Positions 6,378-26,055 of a DNA stretch of 28,706 nt are shown here, piece after piece. The notes beneath the pieces were generated by a model, which had not been told where the DNA came from, made no database searches, and was given only the letters and a program-made list of their open reading frames with translations. Each line of letters starts with the position of its first letter. Within the stretch, counting starts at the first letter, position 1. The position numbers were made by a program, and so were the translations under genes. The DNA is from an uncultured Acidimicrobiaceae bacterium (GTDB taxonomy: Bacteria; Actinomycetota; Acidimicrobiia; Spongiisociales; UBA5794): assembly GCA_964621095.1 (NCBI GenBank), contig CAZULI010000002.1, forward strand, positions 1-28,706, read 5' to 3'.

Positions 6378-6412
6378 ACCGGTCGGGTGAAGTGGCCAAC
6401 CAAAGGAGATCG

Positions 6413-8559: not shown

Positions 8560-8563
8560 TCGG

Positions 8564-10021: not shown

Positions 10022-10039
10022 GGGTCGGTGTGCGCCCGG

Positions 10040-10079
10040 GTGTCCTGGTGCCACCGGTGGTTTCGGGCCACCAGGACAC
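10040..10079 (+). terminator. Inverted repeat after operon A (probable terminator)
   Basis: 11-bp perfect stem GTGTCCTGGTG (10040-10050) / CACCAGGACAC (10069-10079), about 20 nt after the ALDH stop and upstream of the next promoter. Confidence 0.6.
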
Positions 10080-10137
10080 GGGTTCAGGGCCGCGTTCATC
10101 GGGGGAGTGTGGAGGTCCAAGCAGCGTTCTGTGCCAG

Positions 10138-10172
10138 TTGCATCCCTTTTGTATGCCGTGTACTGTATACAA
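10138..10172 (+). promoter_or_regulatory. sigma70-type promoter of operon B with overlapping putative GntR operator 3
   Basis: TTGCAT (10138-10143)-N17-TACTGT (10161-10166). GCCGTGTACTGTATACAA (10155-10172) is 14/18 identical to operator 2, in the same register to the -10 box. Confidence 0.65.
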
Positions 10173-10199
10173 GATATCGGTGACAAGGAGGCAGGTGTC

Positions 10200-11144
10200 A
10201 TGTGTGGAATTGCTGGTCGCATCCTTGACAAGCCGGGGCCCGTGGGCGCAGATCTTGTCGAGCTGATGCAGGCCCAGCGGCATCGGGGGGCCGACTCCAC
10301 CGGGTTTGCGCTGTACGGCACACCGCTTGAGTCGGGGTACCGCGTCGGGATGTTCCTTGATGATCGGTCCCAGGCCCCGAACGTCATTGACCGGTTCGGG
10401 CAGATCATGAACCGCCATGGTGCTGACATCGTGGAGACGCCGACCCTCAACGACGCGGACACACGCCACGGCGCACTCCGGTTCACGGTGTCGGAACCCG
10501 ACAGCCCGATCGCCGATTGGACGGCTGAGTGCGACACGATCGGGGGTACTGAACTCCTCTCGGTTGGGCGCTCACTTGAGATCGTCAAGGACGACGGGGA
10601 TGCAGCACAGGTGGCGGATCGCCACGGTGTGCGTGATTTCGTGGGAACGCACGGGACAGGTCACGCCCGACTTGCCACGGAGTCGGTCGTCTCACCCATC
10701 GCAAGCCACCCGTTCTGGGCGAGGCCGTTCCCGGATGTGGCCATCGTGCACAACGGCCAACTCACCAACTACTTCCTGTGGAGGAGACGCCTCGAGCATC
10801 AGGGGTACCGCTTCAGCACCGAGAACGATTCCGAGCTGATCGCCGTGTGGCTCTCTGACCAGATGAATTCGGGGACAACGCTTGAGGAATCCCTTCGGGC
10901 AAGCATCACTGCGCTTGACGGTGTGTTCACGTTCCTTCTGTCAACGTTTGATCAGATCGGGATGGCAAAGGATCGTCTCGCCATCAAGCCCATCGTCGCC
11001 GTTGAGACCAACAGCGAGGCCGCAATGGCGACCGAGGAACAAGCGATCCGGCACTTGTACGGGGGTGAGGTCGAACCGATCAACTACGACGGTCCGGGGA
11101 TGGTCAAGGTATGGCCGGTCAGCACAGGAGTTGGGGTGTCATGA
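10200..11144 (+). CDS. mgsA: Class II (Ntn) glutamine amidotransferase, N-methylglutamate synthase subunit A / GlxB-like
   Basis: N-terminal MCGIAG (Cys1 nucleophile), GHARLATES, HPF, HNGQLTN, TENDSE; AAGGAG RBS; followed by GXGXG and FMN subunits. Confidence 0.85.
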   Translation: MCGIAGRILDKPGPVGADLVELMQAQRHRGADSTGFALYGTPLESGYRVGMFLDDRSQAPNVIDRFGQIMNRHGADIVETPTLNDADTRHGALRFTVSEPDSPIADWTAECDTIGGTELLSVGRSLEIVKDDGDAAQVADRHGVRDFVGTHGTGHARLATESVVSPIASHPFWARPFPDVAIVHNGQLTNYFLWRRRLEHQGYRFSTENDSELIAVWLSDQMNSGTTLEESLRASITALDGVFTFLLSTFDQIGMAKDRLAIKPIVAVETNSEAAMATEEQAIRHLYGGEVEPINYDGPGMVKVWPVSTGVGVS

Positions 11145-11836
11145 GTGAGATCTTGGAGATCGAAGTCGGAGATCGACCGCTACGAGAAGTCAACGCCGAG
11201 ATTCGCACGGCGGTGGAGGAGGGCCGGGACGTCGTGCTCCACGACACACGCTCCCGCCACAACCTCGCGGTCGGGCTTCCACCGGGTGGCTCGGTGACGA
11301 TCCCCGGTGGCGTTGGGTACTACTGCGGTGGGCTCAACACGGGATCACGTGTCGCCATCGGCCGGAACGCCGGTTGGGGGCTGGGCGAGGCGATGTCGGC
11401 AGGGGAGATCGTCGTGGATGGCTACGCCGGGTTGGGCGTTGGTGCATCGATGCTTGGTGGTCTTGTCCATGTGAAAGGGGACGCCGGACCGAGGGCTGGG
11501 GTCGCGATGAAGGGCGGGGACATCGTGGTGGAAGGGTCCGTGGGGTTTCTGAGCGGGTTCATGGCCCATGCAGGCCGCATCATCGTTCTTGGCGATACGG
11601 AGGACGCGGCCGGGGATTCGTTGTGGGGCGGATGCATGTGGGTGGCAGGAAACGTTCAGTCCCTCGGTGTGGACTCCAAGCTGGTCGATCCTGACGCTGA
11701 CGAGGTGGACTCCGTCGAGGCACTGTTGACCGGTCTCGGGGTTGGTGACAGCAGTCGCTCGTGGAAAAAGATCGTGTCCGGACAGAAGCTCTGGCATTTT
11801 GACGCAAGGGATGCACAAGCATGGCTGATGATTTGA
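11141..11836 (+). CDS. mgsB: GXGXG (GltB/FmdC beta-helix) protein, N-methylglutamate synthase subunit B / GlxC-like
   Basis: Repeating Gly motifs (GRNAGWGLGEAMSAG, GDAGPRAGVAMKGG); ATGA overlap with mgsA. Confidence 0.85.
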   Translation: MSEILEIEVGDRPLREVNAEIRTAVEEGRDVVLHDTRSRHNLAVGLPPGGSVTIPGGVGYYCGGLNTGSRVAIGRNAGWGLGEAMSAGEIVVDGYAGLGVGASMLGGLVHVKGDAGPRAGVAMKGGDIVVEGSVGFLSGFMAHAGRIIVLGDTEDAAGDSLWGGCMWVAGNVQSLGVDSKLVDPDADEVDSVEALLTGLGVGDSSRSWKKIVSGQKLWHFDARDAQAWLMI

Positions 11837-13218
11837 ACAACACCACAGAGAGTCCCGTGATGCTGGAGGACGGGTCGAGTTCCGATCGTCCGGTCGGAAG
11901 TGTCTCGTCGTACGACCGTGGCAAATCAAGCAAGTGGACCCCCGAGTCGATCTCTGAGATCCAGGCCACCGCACAACTGGGTCGGTACGCCATTCGAGGG
12001 TTCTCGACGTTCCACAAGAATCTCCCATCGTTGGATGATCTGACGTTTGTTCCTGCAACACTCACGAGACTCCCCCTTGAGGGGTATCGGGAGGATTGCG
12101 ATGCAACAACGGTGCTCGGTGATCGCCCGGGCCTTGTTGAAAAGCCGATCGAGCTCGCCATCCCCGTGTACATCGCTTCGATGTCGTTCGGGGCTCTGTC
12201 GGCCTCCGCCAAGGCGGCGCTTGGCAAGGGTGCCTCCAAGGTGGGCACCATGACGTGTACCGGTGAGGGTGGGATGCTTGCCGAAGAGCGTGAAGCATCC
12301 GAGACGCTGGTGTACCAGATGACACCGTCACGGTACGGGCTGGACCTCGATCACCTCCGGCGTGCCGACGCCATCGAGATCGCCGTTGGCCAGGGAGCCA
12401 AACCGGGGACCGGCGGCGTCCTCCTGGGGATGAAGGTCTCCGAGCGTGTGGCAAAGATGCGCACCCTCCCCATGGGTGTTGATCAGCGCTCCACGGTGCG
12501 TCACCCCGATTTTCTCGGAGCCGATGACCTCCAGGTGAAGATCGAGGAACTGCGTGAGGCGGTCAATTACAAGGTTCCGATCTTCATCAAGATGGGGGCG
12601 ACGCGTCCCCGCTACGACGTCGCCCTTGCAGCAAAAGCCGGCGCCGACGTCATCGTCCTCGACGGCATGGAGGGCGGAACCAACGCCGCCCCCGAGATTC
12701 TGCTCGACCACACCGGCGTGCCAACGATGGCGGCGATCCGGGCAGGCCGTGAAGCACTCGAGGACGCCGGACTCGCCGACGACGTCAAACTCGTTGCTGC
12801 CGGGGGGATCCGGTCCGGGATTGATGCTGCGAAGGCACTTGCGCTCGGTGCGGACGCCGTCATGATCGGAACCGCCGCGAACATCGCGCTCGGGTGCAAC
12901 GCGCCACGGTACGTGAAGGATTACGAAGCCATCGGAACATCCCCTGGTCAGTGTCACCACTGCCACACGGGTCTCTGCCCGGTCGGCATCCAGACCCAGG
13001 ATCCCGAACTCGAAAAGCGAATGGATGTCGACGCCGGCGCCGAGCGGGTTGCCCGGTTCCTCACGGCGATGACGATGGAGATCACCTTGATCGCCAAGGC
13101 CTGCGGCAAGTCGAGTGTCCACAACCTGGAGCCGGAGGACCTCAGGGCGTTGTCCCTTGAGGCATCGGCGTTCACGGGAGTGGCTCTGGCGGGGATCGAT
13201 CGTCCATACACGTGGTAG
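11821..13218 (+). CDS. mgsC: FMN-binding glutamate synthase family protein, N-methylglutamate synthase subunit C / GlxD-like
   Basis: MSFGALS, TGEGG, GQGAKPGTGG, DGMEGGT, AAGGIRSG, Fe-S cysteines CHHCHTGLCPVGIQTQDP. Confidence 0.88.
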   Translation: MADDLNNTTESPVMLEDGSSSDRPVGSVSSYDRGKSSKWTPESISEIQATAQLGRYAIRGFSTFHKNLPSLDDLTFVPATLTRLPLEGYREDCDATTVLGDRPGLVEKPIELAIPVYIASMSFGALSASAKAALGKGASKVGTMTCTGEGGMLAEEREASETLVYQMTPSRYGLDLDHLRRADAIEIAVGQGAKPGTGGVLLGMKVSERVAKMRTLPMGVDQRSTVRHPDFLGADDLQVKIEELREAVNYKVPIFIKMGATRPRYDVALAAKAGADVIVLDGMEGGTNAAPEILLDHTGVPTMAAIRAGREALEDAGLADDVKLVAAGGIRSGIDAAKALALGADAVMIGTAANIALGCNAPRYVKDYEAIGTSPGQCHHCHTGLCPVGIQTQDPELEKRMDVDAGAERVARFLTAMTMEITLIAKACGKSSVHNLEPEDLRALSLEASAFTGVALAGIDRPYTW

Positions 13219-13249
13219 CGGATCACAGGCAAATGAATGGAGGCCGTCC

Positions 13250-14539
13250 ATGACTGACAAACTTCTCCCCGGGACACACACGATCATTCTCGGCATTGGC
13301 GACCTGTGTGGAATCCTGCGAGGGAAGCATCTTCAGGCATCGATGTGGGAGAAGATCTCGGACCACGGCATCGCGATGGCGAGCGCCATCTTCGTCTTTG
13401 ACATGACGTGTGACATCTGGGACACCCCGTTCTCCAACATGGACAACGGGTACCCGGACCTGTTCGTCACCCCGATCCCGGGAACGCTGCGACCGGTGCC
13501 ATGGGCTGAGGGCACCATGCTCGCCTTCGGCGCTGCGACCCAGGAGAACGGCTCTCCCATACCGACCGATCCACGTCGTGCGCTCCAGAATGTGCTCGCA
13601 CGGTATGACGAGCTGGAGTATCAGGTCAAGGTCGGTGTGGAACTCGAGTTCTTCCTCCTTGACCCCGAGACCAAGGCACCCAGGGACACGGGTGTCCAGG
13701 TCTACGGCGTCGCCCGCGGTGCTCAGTTCGAACATGTCCTCGGGCCGATCCGAAACCAATGCACCGAGTTCGGTATCCCCATCGAGGTCTCCAACCCCGA
13801 GTACTCGAGCGGTCAGTTCGAGGTCAACATCCGTTACGGCGATGCGTTGACGTCGGTGGACAACGCGGTCCTGTTCCGTAGCGCGGTCAAACAAATCGCC
13901 GCCGAGCACGGACTTCTCGCCACGTTCATGGCCAAACCGTTCACCCACGAGTCAGGGAACGGGTTCCATATCCACCAGTCCCTCTGGCAGGGCGACCGAA
14001 ACGTCTTTGCCGATGGGCACCAGCTCTCTGAGCTCGGTCGGCACTACGTCGGAGGACTCCGCCAGCACATGGCGGAGTTCACGCTGTTCGGTGCCCCCAC
14101 CCCCAACAGTTTCAAGCGCCGCGCCCCCTACACGTTCTGTCCCATGAACAACTCCTGGGGAGGCGACAACCGGACCGTCGGTATACGGGCGGTGGAGGGG
14201 CGCCCGGATGCGGTCCGCGTCGAACAGCGTGACGCGAGCGCCGAAGCCAACCCGTATCTCGTGGTCGCAGGACAACTGGTCGCAGGACTGCATGGCATGG
14301 AGGAGAAGCTTGATCCGGGGCCACGAAACAACGGTGACGCCTACGCCGACACGGAGGCCCAACCGCTCCCGATGTCCATCCCGGAGGCGGTGACGGCGTT
14401 GCGTGGCTCCAAGCTTGCCGCAGAGGCGTTTGACCCTCAACTCATTGAGGTCCTGATCCAGATGGCTGAGCGGGAGGAGATGTTCCTGCGCACGAACGTC
14501 ACCGATTTTGAACGGGACCGATACTTGGAGGTGTATTGA
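13250..14539 (+). CDS. Second glutamine synthetase-like gamma-glutamylamide synthetase (GmaS-position gene)
   Basis: [53 protein letters not shown]; GGAGG RBS. Confidence 0.88.
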
Positions 14540-14838
14540 TGCGTATTGCTCGCGTGGTTGGCACGGCAACCGGGTCGGTCAAGGACCCACCGTTGACGGG
14601 CCAGACACTTCTCATCGTCGAGCCCGTGGATGCCCGTGGCGGGTCCATCGGGCCTCACGAGGTCGCCACCGACGCTGGAGTCGGCGCTGGGATCGGCGAC
14701 TGGGTTCTGATGGCGACGGGTTCGTCGGCGCGTCAACCCGGCTCGACACGGGGTGTGGCAACGGACGCTTCCGTTGTCCTCATTCTCGAGGAGCTCAAGT
14801 TGGGCGCCGAGACGACGTACCGCAGCGGTTTGCAATGA
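14539..14838 (+). CDS. BMC vertex pentamer protein (BMC-P, EutN/CcmL family)
   Basis: [15 protein letters not shown]...LLIVEP...[24 protein letters not shown]...DASVVLI is the EutN/CcmL pattern; TGATG coupling to the GS-like gene. Confidence 0.95.
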
Positions 14839-14912
14839 CCACACCAAAGAAAGCAACAAGACCCGCCGAGACGAAAAGTGATTCGATCCCGGCACAAGGA
14901 AAGGAAACGCGA

Positions 14913-15206
14913 ATGGCGGATCAGTCGAAAATGGCATTGGGCATGGTGGAAACGAAGGGGATGGCTGCAGCGACCGAAGCTGCGGACGCGATGCTCAAGG
15001 CCGCCAATGTGGAGCTCACCAGCTACGTGCAGGTTGGCGGAGGTCTCGTGACGGTGTTTATCCGGGGCGAGGTTGGTGCGGTCAAGGCGGCAACGGACGC
15101 AGGCGCCGTTGCGGCGAGCAAGATCGGTGATGTCCAGTCCGTCCACGTCATCGCCCGGCCCCATGACGAACTCCCGAACGTCATGTCCTACATCACCAGC
15201 GCCTGA
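14913..15206 (+). CDS. BMC shell hexamer (BMC-H, EutM/PduA/CcmK family)
   Basis: [22 protein letters not shown]...[23 protein letters not shown]...VHVIARPH. An alternative in-frame ATG at 14835 would add 26 aa. Confidence 0.96.
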
Positions 15207-15246
15207 GCACATGATCTCGTTCCGCCCACCCGTGGGAGGCGTCTGA

Positions 15247-16632
15247 GTGGACGCCGACCTGCGAAGCATCGCTCACGCCCGGGATTGTGCCGAACGCGCC
15301 AGCGTCGCGTTCGGTCAATTTCGTGGTGCCTCGCAGGAGGCCATTGACCGGATCGTTGAGGCAATGGCACGGGCAGCGGTCAGGGAGGCGGGGAGGCTTG
15401 GCGCCCTGGCAGCCGAAGAGACGGGGTACGGCAACGCCGAGGACAAGCGGATGAAGAACATCTACAACGCCCTGGGCGTTGCGGAGTGGCTTCGCAACGT
15501 GCGCACCGTCGGCGTGCTCTGGAAGGATGAGCGCACCAAGGTGATGGCGATCGGTGAGCCCATGGGGATCATCGCGGCGCTGATTCCGGTGACCAACCCG
15601 ACAGCGACGGTGATCTTCAAGGCGCTGAGTGCCGTCAAGGCAGGGAACGCGATCATCTGTGCCCCGCACCCGCGGGGTGTTCGCTCCGGGGTGGAGACGA
15701 CAGCGGTCCTTGCGGCTGCTGCCACCGAGGCGGGCGCGCCGCCCAACCTGGTTCAGTGTCTGAGCGAGGTCACCCTTGAAGCCACCTCCGAGTTGATGCG
15801 ACATCGCAAGACCTCGCTGGTGATGGCGACCGGTGGTGCTGACATGGTGCGGGCCGCGTACTCCTGTGGAAAGCCGACCCTCGCGGTTGGACCGGGGAAC
15901 GTGCCGGTGTACGTGGATGCGTCCAAACGTCACGAGCTTGAGGAGGTTGCCGAACAGATCCTCACCTCAAAGGCGTTCGACAACGGCACGGCGTGTGTGG
16001 CCGAACAAGCCGTGGTTGCCCACCGTGAGATCGCCCGTCCGCTTCGGGATGCGTTCAGAGCCAAAGGTGCGTATTTCTGCACCCCGTCCCAGGCCGAAGC
16101 CCTTGCCAAGGTGATGTTCAACGAACGAGGTGGACAGATCCCCACCCGAGTGGCGCAATCAGCCGCCAGGCTTGCCGAGTTGGCGGGGTTTGATGTGCCG
16201 ATGCGCACGCGGGTGCTCGTGGCTGACGCGTCAGAGGTGGGGAGAAACACTCCGCTCTCGCGGGAGAAACTCAACCCTGTGCTTGCGTTCTACGAGGTGG
16301 GATCGGTGGATGAGGGGTACCGCCTCTGTGAGGCGGTCCTGAACTTTGGTGGCCTCGGTCACAGTGCTGCGGTCCACACCGATGACGCCACGGTCAAGGC
16401 GCAGTTCTCCATGCTGCCGGTCGGCAGGCTGTTGATCAACACCCCGTGTGCGCTCGGTGGCATGGGGTACTCGACCGATCTCGAGCCAAGCTTCATGCTC
16501 GGTACCGGGACCTGGTCCGGATCGATTGTGTCTGACAACGTGACGGCGCTTCACTTGATCAACATCAAGCGGATCGCCGAAGAGACGCGGCCGTGGCGGA
16601 GTTTTGGTGAAATTGAAAGGACAATTCGATGA
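15247..16632 (+). CDS. CoA-acylating aldehyde dehydrogenase (EutE/PduP/AdhE-N family)
   Basis: PVTNPTAT, ATGGADMVRAAYSCGKP, VGPGNVP, catalytic SKAFDNGTACVAEQ, REKLNPVL, SFMLGTG; GGGAGG RBS. Confidence 0.93.
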   Translation: MDADLRSIAHARDCAERASVAFGQFRGASQEAIDRIVEAMARAAVREAGRLGALAAEETGYGNAEDKRMKNIYNALGVAEWLRNVRTVGVLWKDERTKVMAIGEPMGIIAALIPVTNPTATVIFKALSAVKAGNAIICAPHPRGVRSGVETTAVLAAAATEAGAPPNLVQCLSEVTLEATSELMRHRKTSLVMATGGADMVRAAYSCGKPTLAVGPGNVPVYVDASKRHELEEVAEQILTSKAFDNGTACVAEQAVVAHREIARPLRDAFRAKGAYFCTPSQAEALAKVMFNERGGQIPTRVAQSAARLAELAGFDVPMRTRVLVADASEVGRNTPLSREKLNPVLAFYEVGSVDEGYRLCEAVLNFGGLGHSAAVHTDDATVKAQFSMLPVGRLLINTPCALGGMGYSTDLEPSFMLGTGTWSGSIVSDNVTALHLINIKRIAEETRPWRSFGEIERTIR

Positions 16633-17255
16633 CAGGATCCAGGACCGATATCCGGGCGCTGATGCAGATCGATCGGTTGCAGCCCCGGTTTGCGGCGTAC
16701 AGCGCGGCAACCGTGCGAGGCTCCATCCCCCTTGAGGGCGACACCTTGCTCGTTGGTGAGATCGCCCCTGGGAACGCCGTGTTCCAGATCGTCGACATCG
16801 CGCTGAAGGCCGCTGAGATCGAGTCGGTGTCCCAGATCGTGGAACGCGAGTTCGGGTTCTTCATGCTCCGGTCGCCGGTCAACACCTCGATCTCGATCGC
16901 CCGTGACGCGATCCTGGAGTATCTCGGCGCAGAGATGTCGGATCGGATGAAACCGAAGGTCGAAAGCACACAACGCATCACGTCGGTGGAACCCCATCAG
17001 GCCAAGCTGCTCAACATCTGGCGGCAGGGGTCACTCGTCATCCCCGGAAGCACCCTCGGGATGCTTGAGTGTTCACCCGCTGCCTACATCACGATCGCCG
17101 CCAATGAGGCAGAGAAGGCGGCAGACGTCGACATCGTCGAAGTCAGGGCGTTGGGTCGGTTCGGACGAATGTTCATCGCAGGAACCCAGGACAGTGTCAG
17201 CACAGCCCTTGATGCTGCCACGGCCGCCATCGAAGGGACGGATGGCCGTTCATGA
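16629..17255 (+). CDS. BMC trimer shell protein (BMC-T, CcmP-like double-stacking type)
   Basis: IDRLQPRFAAY...GEIAPG...DIALKA...VEREFG and second domain SPAAYITIAANEAEKAADV...GRFGRMFIAG resemble CcmP / Haliangium BMC-T; ATGA overlap with the AldDH. Confidence 0.9.
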   Translation: MTGSRTDIRALMQIDRLQPRFAAYSAATVRGSIPLEGDTLLVGEIAPGNAVFQIVDIALKAAEIESVSQIVEREFGFFMLRSPVNTSISIARDAILEYLGAEMSDRMKPKVESTQRITSVEPHQAKLLNIWRQGSLVIPGSTLGMLECSPAAYITIAANEAEKAADVDIVEVRALGRFGRMFIAGTQDSVSTALDAATAAIEGTDGRS

Positions 17256-18424
17256 ACGTCATTGGAGAACACGATGTGAGGGCAGCAGCGGCCCGCAGCG
17301 ACGTGATCGTCGTTGGTCCGAACGATCTCCTGACACCCAACGCTCGGGATCTGGTCGCCCAGCTCGGACTGCGGATCGTTGCCCAACCGGTTGAAGCCGT
17401 CTCCACCAACGCCCCCGATCACGCGACCGCAGTGAGGCGTGTTCTGTTGCGCCGATCCCCGAAGTGGATTGCTCCCCAAGCGAAGGGTTCCACCACCGAG
17501 AGACCGTTTGAGCGGATCGCGATGGTCGGTTGCGGCGCGGTGGGCGCCGCAACCGCACACCTTGCGGCTGCCCGCCAGGCCGCCAAGAGCCTCGCACTCA
17601 TCGATCTCGTGCCAGGTCTCGCTTCAAGCACGGCTCTTGACATCGAACACGCCTCCGGCATCACGGGTTCCCCCACCACGTGCGTCGGTGGGGAGACAAT
17701 GGATCTCATCGCGGACGCCGATGTCGTGGTGGTGACCGCCGGCAAGCCACGGTCCCCTGGGATGCCACGGGCCGATCTGCGCGACATCAACGCCAAGGTG
17801 ATCGGGGGAGTCGCGGCAGCCGTCCAGGAGTACGCGCCCAACGCGGTCCTCATCGTGGTGACGAACCCGCTCGATGAGATGACGTACGAAGCGTTCCGGT
17901 CCACCGACCTCCCACGCGAACGAGTCCTTGGTATGGCAGGGACCCTCGATTCAAGCCGGTTCCGCTGGGCGTTGGCGACCGAAGCCAAGGTGCACCCGCG
18001 TGATGTGTCAGCGTTCACCCTTGGGAGTCACGGGGATGAGATGGTGCCGATTCTCTCCCTTGCAACCATCAAGGGTCGCCCGGTGACTGAGGTTCTCCCC
18101 AAGGACGCGATTGAACGGTGCGTCCAGGAGACCGTCCATGGGGGCGGCCGCGTCGTTGCCCTACGGCGGACCGGATCGGCGTCGATTGCACCTGCCCACT
18201 CCATCGTTGAGATTCTCGACGCCATGCGCGGTGTGATACCGGGACCCATTCCCGTGTCGGTCGTCCTGCAGGGTGAGTACGGCATCAAGGATGTTGTGGT
18301 GGGTGTTCCCGTTCAACTCGGGATGGGTGGTTTGGAGCGGATCGTGGAGATGCCGCTCAGTGAGGCTGAGCTCAAGATGCTCCGGGAAGCGGCAAGCGTC
18401 GTGAAGGGGCGAATGGTCCAATGA
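17252..18424 (+). CDS. mdh: Malate dehydrogenase (LDH/MDH superfamily) with ~87-aa N-terminal extension
   Basis: GCGAVG, LID, TAGKPRSPGMPRADL (Arg at the MDH specificity position), VTNPLD, GMAGTLDSSRF, GSHGD; extra N-terminal domain containing LLTPNARD. Confidence 0.85.
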   Translation: MNVIGEHDVRAAAARSDVIVVGPNDLLTPNARDLVAQLGLRIVAQPVEAVSTNAPDHATAVRRVLLRRSPKWIAPQAKGSTTERPFERIAMVGCGAVGAATAHLAAARQAAKSLALIDLVPGLASSTALDIEHASGITGSPTTCVGGETMDLIADADVVVVTAGKPRSPGMPRADLRDINAKVIGGVAAAVQEYAPNAVLIVVTNPLDEMTYEAFRSTDLPRERVLGMAGTLDSSRFRWALATEAKVHPRDVSAFTLGSHGDEMVPILSLATIKGRPVTEVLPKDAIERCVQETVHGGGRVVALRRTGSASIAPAHSIVEILDAMRGVIPGPIPVSVVLQGEYGIKDVVVGVPVQLGMGGLERIVEMPLSEAELKMLREAASVVKGRMVQ

Positions 18425-18443
18425 GGGTTCTTGGAGGTGATCG

Positions 18444-19760
18444 ATGAACAACGAAGAAATGCTTTCCGAAATACTCGATGAGCTGAAGAGTTGGAGGGAG
18501 AAGGAGGACGGCTCCCCCCGCATGAGCCAAGCTGAGGCGAAGGCGACGTATCAGGCCGGGTTCGAACGTGCCGTGGATCCCTCACGGCGGGCCCACAAGG
18601 CTGGCAGTCTCAAGGTCACCATCCTCGGCGGTGGCAACGGCGGCATGGCCATGGCTGGCCACATGGCGATTCTTGGCTACGAGATCACCATGTGGTCCCC
18701 GTTCTCGTGGGAGCTTGAACCGATCGAGGAGAAGGGGGGAGTCTCGATCATCGGTTCAGAAGTCTCCGGATTCGGCAAGGTGGCAAAAGTCACCCCCAGC
18801 ATTGATCTGGCGGTCAAAGGCGCCGATCTGATCATGATCATCGCCCCAGCAATGGCACACAAGACGTACGCCTCGATGCTGGCGCCGTTGCTGCGTGACG
18901 GTCAGGTCGTGGTGCTCAACCCGGGACGTACCGGCGGCTCGTTGGAGTTCGCCCGGACCCTCACACGAAACGCGTGTTCAGCGCGGATCGTCCTCGGTGA
19001 GACCCAGACGTTCATTTACGCCGCTGAACGCAAGGATGCGTACACCGTCGAGATCCTCAAGGAGAAGTTCCGGATGCGGGCTGCAGCGCTTCCGGCAGCG
19101 GACAACGATCTTCTGATGGATCCGTTGCGTGATCTGTATCCACAGATCGAACCTGCCCAGAACGTCCTGGAGACCGGACTCAACAATGTAGCACCCGTCG
19201 TGCACCCCGGCACGGTGCTCCTGAACACCTCGGTGCTTGAGCGCACGGCGGCAGGCGAGCCGCTCAAGTTCTACCAGGATCAGGTGACGCCGACGATCGC
19301 CACTCTCATCATGGGAAAGCTTGACCAGGAGAAGCAGAACGTTGCCAAAGCCCTCGGCCTCAAGGAGGTCTGGTCGCTGCTTGACTGGTACCGGGAGAGC
19401 TACCACATCGTGGGTGACTCGATCTTTGAGGTCATCCGAGCCAACCCGTACATTGCGGGGTTCACCGCTCCAAGCAACATCCTGGCCCAGAACCACGTCC
19501 TCGACGATGTTCCCAACTCACTGGTCCCGATCTCAGATTTCGGCAAGGTGCTCGGCGTGGCCACACCAACCATCGACTCGATCGTCCACCTCGCAAGCGC
19601 CATGTGTTCGATTGATTGGTGGGAGGAGGGCAGAACGGTGAGCGGTCTCGGGTTGGGTGGCATGTCCATTGACCACATGATCGAGCACGTTGAACGCACG
19701 GCTCTCGGCGGGAAGTGCTCGGAGTCCGGTGTGTGCCGTGCCTTCGGGTTCTACAAGTAG
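18444..19760 (+). CDS. NAD/NADP opine (octopine/nopaline) dehydrogenase family protein with ~55-aa N-terminal extension
   Basis: ILGGGNGG, LNPGRTGG, ETQTFIYA, LNNVAPVVHPG, DWYRESY, DDVPNSLVP, GVATPTIDSIVHLAS; GGAGG RBS. Confidence 0.87.
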   Translation: MNNEEMLSEILDELKSWREKEDGSPRMSQAEAKATYQAGFERAVDPSRRAHKAGSLKVTILGGGNGGMAMAGHMAILGYEITMWSPFSWELEPIEEKGGVSIIGSEVSGFGKVAKVTPSIDLAVKGADLIMIIAPAMAHKTYASMLAPLLRDGQVVVLNPGRTGGSLEFARTLTRNACSARIVLGETQTFIYAAERKDAYTVEILKEKFRMRAAALPAADNDLLMDPLRDLYPQIEPAQNVLETGLNNVAPVVHPGTVLLNTSVLERTAAGEPLKFYQDQVTPTIATLIMGKLDQEKQNVAKALGLKEVWSLLDWYRESYHIVGDSIFEVIRANPYIAGFTAPSNILAQNHVLDDVPNSLVPISDFGKVLGVATPTIDSIVHLASAMCSIDWWEEGRTVSGLGLGGMSIDHMIEHVERTALGGKCSESGVCRAFGFYK

Positions 19761-19763
19761 GGG

Positions 19764-20108
19764 ATGGCCGTGATGCAAGAGTTCTCGGGTCGACCCGTCA
19801 TCTCGGGGGAGCAGATCGAAGCAGCCGCCGAGATGGGACGTTCAGAACTGGTGATCCCTGCTGGCGCCCTCATCACGCCGCTGGCACACGAGCGGGCAGC
19901 CGCGTTGGGCATCTCTCTCAGCTCAAGCGTTGCTCCCGATCGTCACGCCGGCCACGCCGCCAGAAGAGCAGCGACGCAGGCCAAGGCGAGAGAGATCGTG
20001 GCGCGGGTGGTGGCCGCCCGGGGTGGTGACCCATCGATGGTCGATGACATGGTCAAGACCGTGATGGAGCGCATGTCGAGTAGCTGCAAGTGTGGCGATC
20101 ACCGGTAG
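19764..20108 (+). CDS. Small BMC-associated hypothetical protein (ITPxA module plus C-terminal amphipathic helix)
   Basis: Starts 3 nt after the opine DH stop. N-terminal VISGEQIEAAA...ALITPLAHERAAALGISL; C-terminal MVDDMVKTVMERM. Confidence 0.8.
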   Translation: MAVMQEFSGRPVISGEQIEAAAEMGRSELVIPAGALITPLAHERAAALGISLSSSVAPDRHAGHAARRAATQAKAREIVARVVAARGGDPSMVDDMVKTVMERMSSSCKCGDHR

Positions 20109-20152
20109 CGTTCCGGGAAGCGTTGAAGATGGCAACTCGCGTGCCAAATGCA

Positions 20153-20182
20153 GAGAAGGGACACCCGAGGGTGTCCCTTCTC
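20153..20182. terminator. Bidirectional intrinsic terminator between operon B and the convergent RRM gene
   Basis: Perfect 14-bp inverted repeat GAGAAGGGACACCC-GA-GGGTGTCCCTTCTC between convergent stops at 20108 and 20200. Confidence 0.8.
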
Positions 20183-20199: not shown

Positions 20200-20460
20200 C
20201 TAGTAGCGCGGGCGGCGCTCCTGGCGTTCCTGTGCTTCGTTCACACGGAGGTTGCGTCCGTCCATGTCCTCGCCGTCAAGTTCCTGCATCGCCTTGCGGG
20301 CAAGATCGTCTGACATCTCCACAAACGCAAAACCGCGTGAGCGGCCCGTTTCGCGGTCGGTGATCAGGGCAACGGAGTCAACCGTACCGATCGCCTCAAA
20401 CCTCGTGCGCACTGATTCTTCAGTTGCACTCCATGGGAGGTTTCCCACGTATAGTCTCAT
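20200..20460 (-). CDS. RNA-binding protein (single RRM domain)
   Basis: RNP2 LYVGNL, RNP1 RGFAFVEM, DRETGRS, GRNLRVNEA; ATG 20460 with GGAG upstream (86 aa). Confidence 0.93.
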   Translation of the reverse strand: MRLYVGNLPWSATEESVRTRFEAIGTVDSVALITDRETGRSRGFAFVEMSDDLARKAMQELDGEDMDGRNLRVNEAQERQERRPRY

Positions 20461-20770
20461 TCTTCCGGCTCCATTTCGATGGAAAGCCCACGGCCGCTGT
20501 CTCTGCACTCCGTCGGAACTCGACTCAAGCTGAAAAATCGGGCTGGGGTTGCTAACGGGTGTGAGATTAGCCCATCGCACGTCAAGACGCACACTTCTTG
20601 TGGCGCGTTTCACCCTGATTTTCATGGCGTGTTGCGGGGGTTCATCGTTGGGTGATGGCCCGCGAATGGCCAACCAGCACGGAGCCGTCAGCGGTGCAAG
20701 CACCTGGCGAAGCGCTGCTCGTGAAGCCAACGGGACGCGTCGTGGTCACCGATGCTGCAGCCGCTGTTGG

Positions 20771-22102
20771 CTACCTTCGAACGAACCGCTGTGCCTTGAG
20801 CTCGAAGCGGGGGAGTGACCCGAGGGCGACGATCTCGATGTCTGGGCGGAGGCCCACCGCAGCTTCGAAACGGGCTCGGACTGCAGCCGTCATGGCACGG
20901 CCATCGACGCCGTCCTGGCATTCCAACTCGATCAGCAGTTCTGCCATTTCGCGCTGGGTTGTCACCGTGACGCGAAACTCCTCGATCCCATCGTGGGCAC
21001 GCAACATGTTCTCGACTGCCGCTGGGAAGATGTTGACGCCACGCACCACGATCATGTCGTCAGCCCGGCCGATCACGCCACCATCGAACCGTGTGAACGT
21101 ACGGCCACACGGGCACGGATCGGTGGTGACCCGCACGACATCCCCGGTGCGGTACCGGAAGACGGGGAACCCGATCCTGCCGAGATTGGTGATGACGAGC
21201 TCTCCCTCCCCGCCGGGTTCCACGGGTGATCCGGTTGCAGGATCAAGCACTTCAACAATGAACTCACTGTCGATGGCGTGGGTCCCGCCGGGCTGGGCTT
21301 CACACTCGAAACTGTGCGCGCCGACTTCGGATGCTCCGGCATGGTCATAGCACTTGGCGCCCCACACCGACTCGATGCGCTGTTTGGTCGCTGGCACATT
21401 CGCCCCCGGTTCACCCGCGTGGACCGTGAGCCGCATCGGGATCGTGCTCAGGTCAAACCCATCCTCCCTGGCAACCTCGGCGAGCCGTAGGGCGTAGGTG
21501 GGGGTGCAGGTCATGGCGGTCACCCCCATCTCGGCCATGAGTCCGAGACGCTGGGACGAGGTACGACCGCCCCCTGGCACCATCAGGGCACCGATGTTTT
21601 GAGCTCCGCCGACGGCGGCCCAGAACCCGATGAACGGGCCAAACGAGAACGGAACGAAGAGGCGGTCCTTCGACGTCAATCCTGCACCGGCGAGCACGAA
21701 CCCCCAGCACCGCTCCCACCAGGCCCAGCTCTCGACGGTATCGAACACCCGCAGGGGGCTGCCCGTCGTGCCGGAGGTCTGGTGGACCCGTGTGTACGCG
21801 CTCTCGGGAAATGTGCAGTTGGTGTTGGTCTCGCTCTCGGCCTGTCCTTCCATGAGCTCGGCCTTCGTGGTGAGCGGTAGCTGTGAGAGATCAGCGAGGG
21901 TGCGGATGTCACGAGGGGCGGCTCCCACCGCATCAAACTTCTTGGTCACGAACCGGTTGCTGCCGTAGGTGGCGTCCACAACCACGGCCAACTTTGACTC
22001 CTGGAGGGCGCGGAGTTGCTCCGGTTCCAGCGTCTCGGTTTCCTGGTCAAAAAAGGTGGTCCCCACAGCCACAGTGTGCTCGTTTTGGGGGTCGCTTCGC
22101 AA
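20771..22102 (-). CDS. Phenylacetate-CoA ligase family protein (PaaK-like aryl-CoA ligase)
   Basis: P-loop HQTSGTTG, YDHAGASE, FRYRTGD, GRADDMIVVRGVNIFP. True start may be GTG 22072 or 22066. Confidence 0.88.
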   Translation of the reverse strand: MRSDPQNEHTVAVGTTFFDQETETLEPEQLRALQESKLAVVVDATYGSNRFVTKKFDAVGAAPRDIRTLADLSQLPLTTKAELMEGQAESETNTNCTFPESAYTRVHQTSGTTGSPLRVFDTVESWAWWERCWGFVLAGAGLTSKDRLFVPFSFGPFIGFWAAVGGAQNIGALMVPGGGRTSSQRLGLMAEMGVTAMTCTPTYALRLAEVAREDGFDLSTIPMRLTVHAGEPGANVPATKQRIESVWGAKCYDHAGASEVGAHSFECEAQPGGTHAIDSEFIVEVLDPATGSPVEPGGEGELVITNLGRIGFPVFRYRTGDVVRVTTDPCPCGRTFTRFDGGVIGRADDMIVVRGVNIFPAAVENMLRAHDGIEEFRVTVTTQREMAELLIELECQDGVDGRAMTAAVRARFEAAVGLRPDIEIVALGSLPRFELKAQRFVRR

Positions 22103-22123
22103 CCCGATTGCGGCACGGGCGAC

Positions 22124-22152
22124 CTGCCGGCAGCAGAATCAGACGCTATCGT
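22124..22152 (+). promoter_or_regulatory. Putative promoter giving a (near-)leaderless boxC transcript
   Basis: CTGCCG (22124-22129)-N17-TATCGT (22147-22152); GTG start 8 nt downstream with no SD sequence. Confidence 0.45.
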
Positions 22153-22160
22153 GACCATAC

Positions 22161-23804
22161 GTGATTGAGTTCCAGACACACCCCGACCAGTACCGGCATT
22201 GGCGCCTGGGGGTTGACGGCCGCGTCGCAACCCTCGACATGGATGTGGACCCCGATGGTGGGCTTCACGACGGGTACACCCTCAAACTCAACTCGTACGA
22301 TCTCGGCGTCGACATCGAACTCGCTGACGCCATCCAACGGCTCCGGTTCGAGCATCCCGAGGTTGGTGCGGTGGTGATCGGATCGGCGATGGACCGGGTG
22401 TTCTGTGCTGGTGCCAACATTCCGATGCTTGCCGGTGCCCCGCACCCGCTCAAGGTCAACTTCTGCAAGTTCACCAACGAGACCCGCAACGGGATCGAGG
22501 AGGCATCCGCGGAGTCTGGGCAGCGCTACATCGCGGCAATCAACGGCACGGCTGCTGGTGGCGGGTACGAACTTGCCCTTGCCACGGATCACATCATGTT
22601 GATCGATGATGGGTCCGCTTCAGTGGCTCTGCCGGAAGTGCCGCTCCTGGGGGTACTGCCGGGTACGGGTGGGTTGACGCGTCTTGTCGACAAACGGTTC
22701 GTGCGCCGTGATCGTGCCGACGTCTTCTGCACCGTTGAGGAGGGGATCAAGGGCACGAAAGCGGTGGAGTGGAACCTCATTGATGAACTGGTCCCCGGAT
22801 CCCGGTTTGATGAGATCGTCCACGAGCGCGCCGTGGAGTTCGCAGATGCGAGCCCGCGACCTGCCGAGGGACCAGGGGTGATCCTGACACCGCTCGATCG
22901 CACGATCAGCGAGAACGCACTGACGTACTCGTCGGTATCGGTGTCCATTGACCGCATGGCACGCTCTGCGGAGTTCATCATTGCAGGGCCATCAGATGGC
23001 GCTCCACCCGACGGGGACGGTGCCCGATCACTCGGGGCGGCATGGTGGGCGCTGCGGGTGGCTCGTGAACTCGACGACGCCATTTTGCACCTGCGAGTCA
23101 ACGAACTCGAGATCGGGACCTGGGTCATCCGTACCGAGGGTGACCTGGCGTTGGTGCTTGACCACGACCGCTTCCTCCATGAGTACGCCAGCCACTGGTT
23201 CGTCCACGAGGTGATGCTGTACTGGCGACGAATCCTCAAGCGCATCGATGTCTCATCTCGTTCGATCGTTGCCCTCATCGAACCCGGGTCCTGTTTCGGC
23301 GGGGTCCTGTTCGAGTTGGTACTCGCTGCCGACCGGGCGTATATGTTCCTTGGCGAGGACGACGACGGAGAGACTGCCCGGGTTGCGGTGACCGCGTCAA
23401 GCACCGGACCTCTCACCATGAGCAACGGGTTGACCCGCATCGCCACGCGCTTTTGGGGTGACGACGACGCACGACAGAGCGCGGAAGCGACGGTCGGCTT
23501 GACCCTTGATGCTGAGGAGGCCACGGAGGCGGGTCTCGTCACCGAGATCTTCGACGACATCGATTGGGAGGATGAACTTCGCCTGATTCTTGAGGAGCGG
23601 ACCTCGTTCAGCCCCGACAGTCTCACTGCCATGGAGGCGAACCTGCGGTTCCCTGGACCTGAGACGTTGGAGACCAAGATCTTCGGCAGACTGACCGCAT
23701 GGCAGAACTGGGTGTTCCAGCGTCCGAACGCATCGGGAGAAGTCGGTGCGCTTGGACGGTACGGAACCGGGCTGCGTCCTGAGTATGACAAGAGGAGGGT
23801 GTAG
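22161..23804 (+). CDS. boxC: 2,3-epoxybenzoyl-CoA dihydrolase (benzoyl-CoA-dihydrodiol lyase)
   Basis: KLNSYDLGVDIELADAIQRLRFEHPEV, KVNFCKFTNETRN, PEVPLLGVLPGTGGLTR, ETKIFGRLTAWQNWVFQRPNA. Confidence 0.95.
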   Translation: MIEFQTHPDQYRHWRLGVDGRVATLDMDVDPDGGLHDGYTLKLNSYDLGVDIELADAIQRLRFEHPEVGAVVIGSAMDRVFCAGANIPMLAGAPHPLKVNFCKFTNETRNGIEEASAESGQRYIAAINGTAAGGGYELALATDHIMLIDDGSASVALPEVPLLGVLPGTGGLTRLVDKRFVRRDRADVFCTVEEGIKGTKAVEWNLIDELVPGSRFDEIVHERAVEFADASPRPAEGPGVILTPLDRTISENALTYSSVSVSIDRMARSAEFIIAGPSDGAPPDGDGARSLGAAWWALRVARELDDAILHLRVNELEIGTWVIRTEGDLALVLDHDRFLHEYASHWFVHEVMLYWRRILKRIDVSSRSIVALIEPGSCFGGVLFELVLAADRAYMFLGEDDDGETARVAVTASSTGPLTMSNGLTRIATRFWGDDDARQSAEATVGLTLDAEEATEAGLVTEIFDDIDWEDELRLILEERTSFSPDSLTAMEANLRFPGPETLETKIFGRLTAWQNWVFQRPNASGEVGALGRYGTGLRPEYDKRRV

Positions 23805-23806
23805 GC

Positions 23807-25249
23807 ATGGGCACCGACAAAGTGGATTACGACGCATTGATTCCCAACAACGTGGGGCTGGCAGACGACCCGAAACTCCAGCGAGCCCTGGAGGAGTGGC
23901 ACCCTGGATACATCGACTGGTGGATGACGATGGGACCGGACGGGTTCCAGATGGCCGATGTCTACCTGCGGACCGCCATCAGCGTGGAGAAACAGGGTTG
24001 GGCCAAGTTCGACTACGTCAAGATGCCCGAGTACCGCTGGGGCATCCTGCTCGCCCCCGCCGTGGAGGGTCGCACCATCCCGTGCGGGGAACATGTCGGT
24101 GAGTCTGCCTGGCAGGAGGTCCCGGGGGAGTACCGGTCGATGTTGCGACGGTTGATCGTCATCCAAGGGGACACCGAACCCGCCTCGGTCGAACAACAAC
24201 GGTTCCTTGGTTCAACGGCGCCATCACTCTATGACCTGCGAAACCTCTTCCAGGTCAACGTCGAGGAGGGCCGCCACCTCTGGGCGATGGTGTATCTCCT
24301 CCAGAAGTACTTTGGCAAGGCCGGCCGCGAGGAGGCACAGGACCTGCTGCTCCGCCAGTCGGGGAGTGATGCCCGTCCGCGGATGCTCGGAGCGTTCAAC
24401 GAGGAAACCCCCGACTGGTTGTCGTTCTTCATGTTCACCTATTTCACCGACCGGGACGGCAAGATGCAGCTCGAAGCTCTCGCGCAGTCGGGCTTTGATC
24501 CTCTCTCGCGCACCTGTCGCTTCATGCTTGCGGAAGAGGCCCACCACATGTTTGTCGGCTACACCGGAGTCAACCGGGTCGTTGAAGCGACCGTTGATGC
24601 GATGGATGCCGCAGGGATCTCGGATCCGTACGATCTTGAGGCAGTCCGGGCGCTCGGCGTGATCGATCTGCCAACGATCCAGCGCAAGATGAATCTTCAC
24701 TTCTCCCTGACCCTGGACCTCTTCGGCTCCGAGGAGTCCACCAATGCAGCGAACTTCTTCAACGCAGGGCTCAAGGGCCGGTACCACGAGTCGAGTCTTG
24801 ATGATGACCACCGGTTGACCAACGACACGTACCCGGTCATGAAACTCGTCGATGGGCGTCTCCAACCCGTTGAGGTCCCGGCACTCCTGGCGCTCAACGC
24901 CCGACTGCGGGACGACTTCATCGATGATTGCCAGGGTGGCGTCACCCGTTGGAACCGGGTCATCGCCGGCAAGGGGATCGAGTTCGAGCTTCGACTCCCT
25001 CACGCTGCGTTCAACCGATCCGTCGGGGAGTTCGAGGACCTTCACGTCTCCCCTGATGGGAAGCTGCTGACACCCGAGGAGTGGGAGCGTCAGGTTGGTG
25101 ACTGGTTGCCCACGGATGGTGATCGAGAACATATCGAGAGCTTGATGAAGCCCGAACTCGAACCAGCCAAGTTCGCCAGTTGGATCGCACCCCCCACCAG
25201 GGGGATCCAGAACATGCCGGAGGACTTCCTCTACGTCAAGCTGCCCTGA
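23807..25249 (+). CDS. boxB: Benzoyl-CoA 2,3-epoxidase subunit B (diiron)
   Basis: VIQGDTEPASVEQQR, VNVEEGRHLWAM, FTDRDGKMQL, EEAHHMFVG, LDLFGSE; adjacent to boxC. Confidence 0.95.
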   Translation: MGTDKVDYDALIPNNVGLADDPKLQRALEEWHPGYIDWWMTMGPDGFQMADVYLRTAISVEKQGWAKFDYVKMPEYRWGILLAPAVEGRTIPCGEHVGESAWQEVPGEYRSMLRRLIVIQGDTEPASVEQQRFLGSTAPSLYDLRNLFQVNVEEGRHLWAMVYLLQKYFGKAGREEAQDLLLRQSGSDARPRMLGAFNEETPDWLSFFMFTYFTDRDGKMQLEALAQSGFDPLSRTCRFMLAEEAHHMFVGYTGVNRVVEATVDAMDAAGISDPYDLEAVRALGVIDLPTIQRKMNLHFSLTLDLFGSEESTNAANFFNAGLKGRYHESSLDDDHRLTNDTYPVMKLVDGRLQPVEVPALLALNARLRDDFIDDCQGGVTRWNRVIAGKGIEFELRLPHAAFNRSVGEFEDLHVSPDGKLLTPEEWERQVGDWLPTDGDREHIESLMKPELEPAKFASWIAPPTRGIQNMPEDFLYVKLP

Positions 25250-25461
25250 CCAGGTGCCGGTTGGGCATCGGGTCCCGTGGAGAAGGTCATCTCAGCCGCC
25301 GGTCGCTGCACCCCGGACCTCGACGGTCGGGATGGTGCCGTGGCTGGCAGCGGGAGTCTGGTCGGTAAACTGTGGTGTTGACCATTGTCGATCACTCCGC
25401 TGTCACCTTGGTGAGTAGCTCTGATGACCGAGCAGTACCCCAGTCGAAGGGAATACATCAC

Positions 25462-25920
25462 ATGCGTATCGATTTTCGATCAGCGCTTCCATCAGCTCTG
25501 ACGGCCATGATGGGTCTCCAGAAAGTTGTCAACTCCAGCGCTCTTGAACCAGAACTCCTTGAGTTGGTGAAGATCCGGGCATCACAGATCAACGGCTGTG
25601 GGCACTGCCTTGACATGCACACCAAGGATGCTGAGGCGATGGGGATGGCGTCTCACCGTCTGCACCTCGTGGCGGCATGGGACGAAGCTCCGTACTACTC
25701 GGATCGGGAGCGGGCAGCCCTGGAGTGGTGTGAGGTTCTCACGCTCATCGCTGACCATGGTGTCCCGGATGAGGTGTATGAAGAGGTGGCGGCTGTCTTT
25801 TCCGAGGAGGAGATCGTGGCCCTCACGTTTGCGGTCATAGCGATCAACAGCTGGAACCGTCTCAATGTGGCGTTTCAGTCCTCCGTGGGCGACTACGTCG
25901 CGGGGAGCTACGGCCACTAG
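25462..25920 (+). CDS. Carboxymuconolactone decarboxylase / AhpD-like family protein
   Basis: ELVKIRASQINGCGHCLDMH (CxxC), YSDRERAALEW, INSWNRL; start placed at ATG 25462. Confidence 0.9.
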   Translation: MRIDFRSALPSALTAMMGLQKVVNSSALEPELLELVKIRASQINGCGHCLDMHTKDAEAMGMASHRLHLVAAWDEAPYYSDRERAALEWCEVLTLIADHGVPDEVYEEVAAVFSEEEIVALTFAVIAINSWNRLNVAFQSSVGDYVAGSYGH

Positions 25921-25930
25921 GATTCCTGAC

Positions 25931-25968
25931 CGATCCAGCATCCCCCCGACGAGGGGGGTGCTGGATCG
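25931..25968 (+). terminator. GC-rich hairpin after the CMD gene (probable terminator)
   Basis: CGATCCAGCATCCCCCC...GGGGGGTGCTGGATCG, 10 nt after the stop codon. Confidence 0.65.
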
Positions 25969-26055
25969 TCGATCACATCGCAGAAGGCGCGGCCGTGTTC
26001 AGGCGATCGCGTGTGACAGGGACAGTGGCGTAAGAATCGGTATCGTTCGGACGCC

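Follow-up and report, generated by a model that had tools for sequence, protein, structure and literature searches.

We analysed a window of 28,706 nucleotides (nt), the whole stretch of DNA under study, from an uncultured Acidimicrobiaceae bacterium (GenBank assembly GCA_964621095.1, contig CAZULI010000002.1), in which a malate dehydrogenase (MDH) with a long N-terminal extension is encoded next to the shell genes of a bacterial microcompartment (BMC). The gene set of the window is the one that defines the MIC2 microcompartment type (Sutter et al. 2021, Nat Commun, PMC8217296, Supplementary Data 2). That catalogue holds 22 MIC2 loci, two of them actinobacterial, and describes on the MIC2 lactate dehydrogenase (LDH)/MDH an N-terminal extension that is roughly 70 amino acids (aa) long and has detectable homology to the EutQ/cupin-like superfamily, a similar domain being present in MIC1 (PMC8217296). 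MIC2 and MIC3 are among the types in which neither of the known regeneration systems is present, and their NAD+ regeneration "has yet to be determined" (PNAS 2024). The MDH of the window is the re-discovered hallmark enzyme of the catalogued MIC2 type, in a new Acidimicrobiia variant. Its open reading frame opens with ATG and encodes a product of 390 aa, with the following parts:

17252–18424, forward strand: extended MDH of the MIC2-type microcompartment operon (open reading frame, Pfam, NCBIfam, alignment to MDHs in the PDB and fold comparison)
17252–17389, forward strand: residues 1–46, α/β module like the EutQ N-terminus (H1/H2), putative shell-docking domain (BLASTP, hhalign, AlphaFold2 (AF2) and module profile)
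17417–17479, forward strand: residues 56–76, conserved basic helix and 'RRSPKW.AP' motif (conservation in 110 homologs, AF2)
17513–18421, forward strand: residues 88–390, LDH-like NAD-dependent MDH catalytic domain (Pfam, PDB alignment, NCBIfam and fold)
17735–17779, forward strand: residues 162–176, mobile substrate loop TAGKPRSPGMPRADL (alignment to 4plh and 1uxi)

Judged by its sequence, the catalytic domain is that of an LDH-like NAD-MDH and is intact, with all catalytic residues. Pfam assigns residues 88–227 to Ldh_1_N (E 4.9e-33) and residues 231–386 to Ldh_1_C (E 3.1e-26), the protein passes the NCBIfam MDH subfamily model PRK06223 (323.8 bits, cut-off 283), and L-LDH models score about 110 bits lower than MDH models. 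Among solved structures, the best relatives are tetrameric MDHs of the LDH-like type (E 1e-73 to 1e-71), including 4plh (ancestral apicomplexan) and 1uxi (Chloroflexus), and the AF2 model (predicted local distance difference test score (pLDDT) 91.4) superimposes on LDH-like MDHs with template-modelling (TM) scores of 0.92–0.95. The loop TAGKPRSPGMPRADL pairs with 'AGIPRKPGMSRDDL' of the solved MDHs, so that R167 falls on LDH position 102 (the residue for MDH/LDH specificity) and R173 on position 109. The NPLD, LDSSR and SHGD motifs supply N140/D143, D168/R171 and H195 in LDH numbering. R167, R173, the N140/D143 pair, D233 (D168), R236 (R171) and H260 (H195) are invariant in 110 homologs, as is the GxGxxG Rossmann motif (G93/G95/G98). 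An earlier note on this DNA, made from the letters alone, had proposed an intact MDH-type loop with Arg, an N-terminal extension of about 87 aa and coupling of the gene to that of the trimeric shell protein BMC-T. The follow-up bears out all three: the Arg lies at position 102 by alignment to solved MDHs; these match the query only from residue 87/88 onward, starting at their own residues 2–5, and residues 1–87 match no Pfam family; and the MDH start codon (17252–17254) overlaps the BMC-T stop codon TGA (17253–17255) in an ATGA.

The extension is real, because solved MDHs align only behind it, and it is not the product of a mis-called start, because its sequence is conserved across phyla. The NCBIfam scan gave only a weak EutQ match (E 0.0019) for this region, and with Pfam blank, homology to EutQ had to be established by profile–profile comparison and a shuffle control. 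BLASTP aligned the N-terminal module to E. coli EutQ residues 3–45 with 35% identity (E 2e-4). When a 110-sequence profile was compared with EutQ residues 3–53 by hhalign, the match covered MDH residues 2–50 with a probability of 94% and an E value of 1.3e-7, and the top score against 100 shuffled EutQ N-termini was 16.3, compared with 46.5 for the real sequence. The consensus of residues 1–46 in the 110 homologs reads VIGE..V..A..RGR..I.V.PGDIVTP.ARD.A..LGL..V, and AF2 predicts a small β-α-β-β-α-β module at residues 1–43 (pLDDT ~90), followed by a loose linker.

Behind the module lies a second conserved element, at residues 56–76, with the consensus D..TA.RRVLYRRSPKW.AP, in which R63 and L65 are invariant and D56, R67, R68 and W72 are at least 90% conserved among the 110 homologs. 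The helix that the earlier note saw behind the extra domain, 'DHATAVRRVLLRR', is indeed present in the AF2 models, at residues 57–68 (pLDDT 62–73), and is strongly basic and amphipathic. A classical encapsulation peptide is a terminal amphipathic helix of ~15–20 aa joined through a poorly conserved linker. Here the N-terminus is a folded α/β module, and helix 57–68 is no classical encapsulation peptide, because it is internal and too conserved. Residues 56–76 may possibly serve as an internal element resembling an encapsulation peptide, or as a cargo-binding element. Residues 50–87 showed no similarity to EutQ residues 55–100 (H3/H4), and with the cupin domain also absent by Pfam, we do not claim a complete EutQ-type linker.

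The part of EutQ to which the module is related has a defined function. EutQ 1–99 is the shell–cargo linker of the Salmonella Eut microcompartment and by itself targets GFP into that compartment; its helices H1/H2 (residues 9–41) bind the shell at the EutM/EutL interface, and H3/H4 bind the encapsulation peptides of cargo (PMC12487888, 2025). A profile of the module was searched against 1.84 billion representative proteins (threshold E ≤ 0.001). It matched 920 of them, in which the module stands at the N terminus, at the C terminus or in two to three copies. The Pfam partners among the best 150 of the 920 were LDH/MDH (15), EutQ cupin (11), RpiB (5), phosphotransacylase (PTAC) of the PduL type (2), flavoprotein (2), Pta (1) and cobalamin adenosyltransferase (1); RpiB is an enzyme of the SPU compartment. 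The architectures include a PTAC followed by a C-terminal module (P0162 and P0218), a module followed by Pta (P0165) and a module followed by the EutQ cupin (P0183). The EutQ-N-like unit of about 45 aa has no family of its own in the 2025 copy of Pfam.

These fusions bear on whether the extension is a binding site for a small molecule. Sutter et al. described the domain as 'possibly interacting with a ligand' (PMC8217296), and it might accordingly be a ligand-binding or regulatory domain of an enzyme that is not encapsulated. A Foldseek search of the isolated N-extension model against the PDB leaves room for such a role: it gave no meaningful match (best E 0.34), so that no function can be assigned from structure. 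We nevertheless consider this account quite improbable. The homologous part of EutQ is its non-cupin N-terminus, a shell binder, and a targeting or docking role is favoured over a substrate-specific ligand site because the module is recurrently fused, at either terminus, to unrelated microcompartment enzymes. The comparisons point to a mobile unit of about 45 aa, related to EutQ H1/H2 and portable across microcompartment enzymes. This wide reuse appears to be new here, as does the proposed link of the MDH extension to the experimentally defined shell-binding part of EutQ.

Relatives of the extended MDH were sought in a scan of one genome per species and occur in at least 561 species genomes. 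Full-length relatives (~390 aa, at least 95% coverage) come from Acidimicrobiia, Solirubrobacterales, Thermocrispum, Brevibacterium, many Rhodobacterales and Hyphomicrobiales, Granulosicoccaceae, Arenicellales and SUP05. For synteny we retrieved 54 loci with at least 8 kb on both sides, from Actinomycetota, Alphaproteobacteria and Gammaproteobacteria. In every one, genes for BMC-T, an aldehyde dehydrogenase (AldDH), an opine dehydrogenase (DH), the hexameric shell protein BMC-H and the vertex protein BMC-P lie on the strand of the MDH gene. BMC-T is always immediately upstream and ends 0–151 nt ahead of it. A glutamine synthetase (GS)-like gene is present in 51 of the 54 loci, and genes like those for the subunits of N-methylglutamate synthase (Mgs) in about 40. 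Since all 54 loci carry the shell set on the same strand, the extended MDH is an obligate core component and no occasional neighbour.

Metagenomes of activated sludge and wastewater also contain the window sequence. Four metatranscriptomes from sludge have RNA-derived contigs, 8 kb up to 9,891 nt long, that run unbroken over 10,279–20,169. Their depth is 34–44 over this interval compared with 0–8 for the upstream genes, and in the sludge runs the BMC operon has 5–10 times the RNA depth of the upstream genes for a short-chain dehydrogenase/reductase (SDR), GS and AldDH. Subject to the usual caveats on contig depth, these data indicate a single transcription unit with the MDH gene in it, and they suggest an operon start near 10,24x–10,28x and an end just past the gene for a 114-aa protein. 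In runs X14 and X17, RNA contigs of low depth connect position 15390 to 19048, skipping 3657 nt, with only 21 nt on one side and foreign loose ends; they probably belong to another organism that shares a short word and mark no real deletion.

A housekeeping MDH of the tricarboxylic acid cycle might by chance have come to lie beside shell genes, and a second mdh gene is not visible from the window alone. In genera such as Ruegeria and Sulfitobacter, the family is restricted to some of the species, its conserved extension of about 87 aa was found here only in BMC operons (54 of 54), and the gene overlaps the BMC-T stop codon and is co-transcribed with the shell genes. This accessory distribution, together with the extension and the operon structure, makes a housekeeping role very unlikely, the least probable of the alternatives weighed here. 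The earlier note had proposed that the MDH is microcompartment cargo by way of its extension. That part of the proposal has good support in the operon context in 54 of 54 loci, the EutQ homology and the reuse of the module, whereas the helix that it singled out is not a classical encapsulation peptide; on the sequence evidence, the folded module 1–46 is the better-supported targeting element of the two. That the MDH is encapsulated, or tethered to the shell, through its EutQ-like module is well supported by these lines of inference.

The other genes of the operon are:

16629–17255, forward strand: BMC-T, a double-stacking CcmP/CsoS1D-like trimer protein (Pfam BMC; NCBIfam CcmP at 185.6 bits, below the 340-bit cut-off)
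15247–16632, forward strand: acylating AldDH (Pfam Aldedh; NCBIfam EutE/AdhE-type at 466–473 bits, below the family cut-offs)
14835–15206, forward strand: BMC-H shell protein (Pfam BMC, 8.6e-26)
14536–14838, forward strand: BMC-P (EutN/CcmL) vertex protein (Pfam EutN_CcmL, 2.4e-21)
18444–19760, forward strand: opine DH-family enzyme (Pfam Octopine_DH; PDB 1bg6)
19764–20108, forward strand: 114-aa protein with an EutQ-N-like module and a helical C-terminal half (hhalign, hmmsearch)
13250–14539, forward strand: GS-like enzyme of the γ-glutamyl-amine synthetase type (Pfam Gln-synt_C; all NCBIfam matches below cut-off)
10200–13218, forward strand: three Mgs-subunit-like genes (GATase, GXGXG and Glu_synthase; Pfam; first start approximate)

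This inventory agrees with the catalogue entry for MIC2. The window encodes a pfam02866 LDH/MDH with the EutQ-like N-terminal extension (~70 aa in the catalogue's terms), a pfam00171 AldDH without an encapsulation peptide, a protein of the 6PGDH-like superfamily with an N-terminal helix as a likely encapsulation peptide (the opine DH-family enzyme), two copies of a pfam00120 GS-like gene (7177–8559 and 13250–14539) and a minimal shell with a single BMC-H, a single BMC-P and a single BMC-T of the Tdp class. The AldDH has no terminal extension: its Aldedh domain begins at residue 10 of 461, and its C-terminal end was judged by eye. Scans of the window with Pfam and NCBIfam detected no alcohol dehydrogenase, no PTAC and no PduS/T pair in the locus.

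A close solved relative of the opine DH, whose gene is preceded by a GGAGG ribosome-binding site, is the Arthrobacter N-(1-D-carboxyethyl)-L-norvaline dehydrogenase (CENDH; 1bg6, E 1.4e-65, 225 bits). In the protein of the window, the Octopine_DH and NAD_Gly3P_dh_N domains are preceded by about 55 aa with an N-terminal helix, and the acidic amphipathic helix at the N terminus (MNNEEMLSEILDELKSW) is likely to be an encapsulation peptide. Opine DHs across the loci open with short acidic/hydrophobic helices of this kind (MSxxFEEFxxA; MNNEEMLSEILDELKSW in the window), the helix type being kept. The enzyme may act on an N-substituted glutamate, the compound expected from the neighbouring Mgs-like genes.

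Downstream of the opine DH gene, the 114-aa protein carries the module at residues 11–55; helices are predicted behind it, and a C-x-C-G motif is conserved at the C-terminus. By hhalign it is related to the MDH N-extension with a probability of 95.8% and to EutQ 1–45 with 76%. It could be a stand-alone, cupin-less shell–cargo linker of the EutQ type, to judge from this similarity. Among the loci searched by hmmsearch it was found in the window and in L003, L004, L006 and L019, that is, in MIC2 loci of the Acidimicrobiia type only, and in L083, the closest genome, a 114-aa gene stands at the same place. That genome is an Acidimicrobiia metagenome-assembled genome with an 82% identical MDH, in which the gene order is the same through the 114-aa gene and then diverges.

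The GATase-like open reading frame at 9882–11144 (forward strand) would encode 420 aa; its homologs have 314 aa and the RNA contigs begin at ~10,242–10,281, and the gene probably begins around 10,200 or further on. All NCBIfam matches of the GS-like and Mgs-like genes fall below the curated cut-offs, and amine substrate schemes based on ethanolamine, taurine and glycine-derived opines were weighed with none supported. Upstream of the operon lie the second GS-like gene (7177–8559), an SDR gene, a non-acylating AldDH gene and a branched-chain-type ABC transporter. The SDR, GS-like and non-acylating AldDH genes at 6392–10021 (forward strand) resemble a Puu-type γ-glutamylation route; an SDR and a non-acylating AldDH lie within 10 kb in only ~8–12 of the 54 related loci. 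On the other side, the gene at 20200–20463 (reverse strand) encodes a small RNA-binding protein with RRM_1 (Pfam E 1.8e-19), which occupies the same place in L083 and has the highest RNA contig depth of the region (179 in run X17). Further genes (20771–25249 and 25372–27780) encode a PaaK-like CoA ligase (reverse strand), a BoxC-like enoyl-CoA hydratase of 547 aa, a BoxB-like di-iron protein of 480 aa, a CMD-family protein and a SulP/STAS transporter. These box/paa-like genes are neighbours from aromatic-CoA catabolism that are not conserved beside MIC2 elsewhere. Because the gene order of the closest genome diverges past the 114-aa gene, we regard them as unrelated neighbours and dropped them from the model.

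On this basis we propose, with a probability of roughly 55% for the model as a whole, that the MDH of this MIC2-type metabolosome is docked to the shell through residues 1–46 and reduces oxaloacetate to malate in the lumen for NAD+ recycling. In an Acidimicrobiia host from activated sludge, the gene would encode the malate/oxaloacetate dehydrogenase of the compartment. Its N-terminal module would dock the enzyme to the shell, perhaps at a BMC-T/BMC-H interface as EutQ does in Eut compartments, and docking would therefore place the MDH in the lumen. The basic helix at 56–76 may tie the enzyme to other cargo such as the opine DH, although a charge-complementary contact with the acidic N-terminal helix of that enzyme is speculation. 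Imported oxaloacetate would then be reduced to malate, regenerating NAD+ for the acylating AldDH and, if it runs oxidatively on an N-substituted glutamate, also for the opine DH. Malate would leave the compartment and be re-oxidised in the cytosol, and the MDH would take over the part played in other metabolosomes by alcohol dehydrogenase or PduS/T systems.

Support for the redox role is moderate. Oxaloacetate reduction is predicted because every oxaloacetate-binding residue is invariant, and regeneration of luminal NAD+ because the AldDH makes NADH and the locus has no other recycler. The reduction of oxaloacetate to malate is strongly exergonic, and it leaves no by-product in aerobes, as re-oxidation of the malate can take place outside. 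That a gated Tdp-type BMC-T is always adjacent would be compatible with dicarboxylate traffic. A wider version, in which the EutQ-H1/H2-like unit is a portable shell-docking domain across many microcompartment types that in MIC2 tethers an MDH, and in which an oxaloacetate/malate shuttle exports luminal reducing equivalents, is offered more tentatively, as something we think somewhat doubtful.

For the opine DH, three modes can be envisaged. It could release an aldehyde from an N-alkylglutamate, as in the scheme of the earlier note, whose count of two NADH-producing steps is uncertain because it assumes an oxidative, aldehyde-releasing enzyme. Members of the opine DH/CENDH family normally interconvert an opine with an amino acid and a 2-oxo acid, accept oxaloacetate, and serve as an NADH sink in invertebrates. 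The enzyme could release a 2-oxo acid, specifically a 2-oxo-dicarboxylate, that the MDH uses, or it could act in the reductive direction as an NADH sink in its own right. The second mode leads to an account in which the MDH is a pathway step, reducing or oxidising a 2-oxo or 2-hydroxy dicarboxylate that is produced within the compartment, and no general NADH sink; for example, an opine DH that cleaves an N-(dicarboxyalkyl) compound to oxaloacetate would form a redox-neutral couple with the MDH. The partner enzyme is a close homolog of CENDH/opine DHs, the two genes occur together in 54 of 54 loci, and the MDH family has clade-specific changes near the active site, all of which would suit such a couple. 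Yet it would leave the NADH of the conserved acylating AldDH unrecycled, and the presence of Mgs-like and GS-like genes speaks for N-alkylglutamate intermediates over aspartate-derived opines, and we judge this account unlikely, if the strongest of the alternatives.

The direction of catalysis could also be reversed, with the MDH oxidising malate to oxaloacetate and feeding luminal NADH to reductions, for instance a reductive amination by the opine DH. The direction of the opine DH is not fixed by sequence, and opine DHs commonly run reductively. Malate oxidation is thermodynamically unfavourable, and the locus looks catabolic, with its uptake ABC transporter, γ-glutamyl-amine synthetase-like genes and NADH-making acylating AldDH, which makes this direction a poor bet.

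Several observations weigh against the luminal reduction of oxaloacetate by a shell-docked MDH, besides the reductive and 2-oxo-acid-releasing modes of the opine DH. The protein scores 283 bits with the bacterial MDH equivalog TIGR01763, below the cut-off of 351.85, and near the active site the family has R/K at loop position 100, has lost K103 and has an invariant H316. Because of this score and these changes, another 2-oxo-dicarboxylate may be the substrate. Unlike the EutQ linker, the MDH has no detectable counterpart of H3/H4 and no cupin or acetate-kinase domain, the homology being to H1/H2 only, and the MIC2 shell partner would be a Tdp-class BMC-T, another class than EutL of Eut. Searching the literature for functional studies of MIC2 or of an MDH linked to BMCs, we found descriptions at catalogue level only. 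The malate shuttle is a hypothesis, a reasonable and unpublished-looking refinement of the older NAD+-recycling idea.

If the wider version with its shuttle is true, MIC2 would add a third way for metabolosomes to recycle NAD+. It would resemble the malate valves of organelles and would suit an aerobic breakdown of amines in which no alcohol by-product forms. A dicarboxylate redox shuttle would answer the question of NAD+ regeneration in MIC2 and could supply a by-product-free recycling module for engineered compartments. If the docking role is general, the EutQ-H1/H2-like unit would be a possible targeting tag distinct from classical encapsulation peptides. Such compartments are widespread: at least 561 species genomes have MIC2, among them those of marine Rhodobacterales, SUP05, Arenicellales and sludge Acidimicrobiia, and it is transcribed in wastewater communities.

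MDH residues 2–50 are homologous to EutQ 3–53, which span H1/H2 of the shell–cargo linker (a likeness by homology only), and unlike in EutQ, the module is joined directly to a dehydrogenase. The catalytic domain resembles the Chloroflexus aurantiacus MDH (1uxi and 4cl3; LDH-like type 3 tetrameric NAD-MDH), with ~40% identity, a TM score of 0.93 and all catalytic and oxaloacetate-binding residues kept, whereas the 87-aa extension and the clade residues (R/K at loop position 100, a variable position 103, NPLDEMT, GSHGDEM and the invariant H316) set it apart from Chloroflexus-type MDHs. In MIC2 as catalogued, the opine DH gene precedes the AldDH gene, whereas in the Acidimicrobiia variant of the window it follows the MDH gene, and the variant adds the lineage-restricted 114-aa EutQ-N-like protein. 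The PVM and MIC1 loci (Axen 2014; Erbilgin 2014) likewise have an LDH/MDH-fold enzyme in a metabolosome locus without a classical alcohol dehydrogenase, and MIC1 members share a similar N-terminal domain with the MDH of the window. The LDH/MDH-pfam gene was predicted to serve as the core alcohol dehydrogenase function in PVM, and such genes were proposed to supply the core function of NAD+ recycling in PVM and perhaps also in MIC1 (Axen 2014). The MDH of the window differs from these in that its Arg-102 loop predicts oxaloacetate as the substrate, and the redox carrier would therefore be a dicarboxylate pair and no by-product of the pathway.

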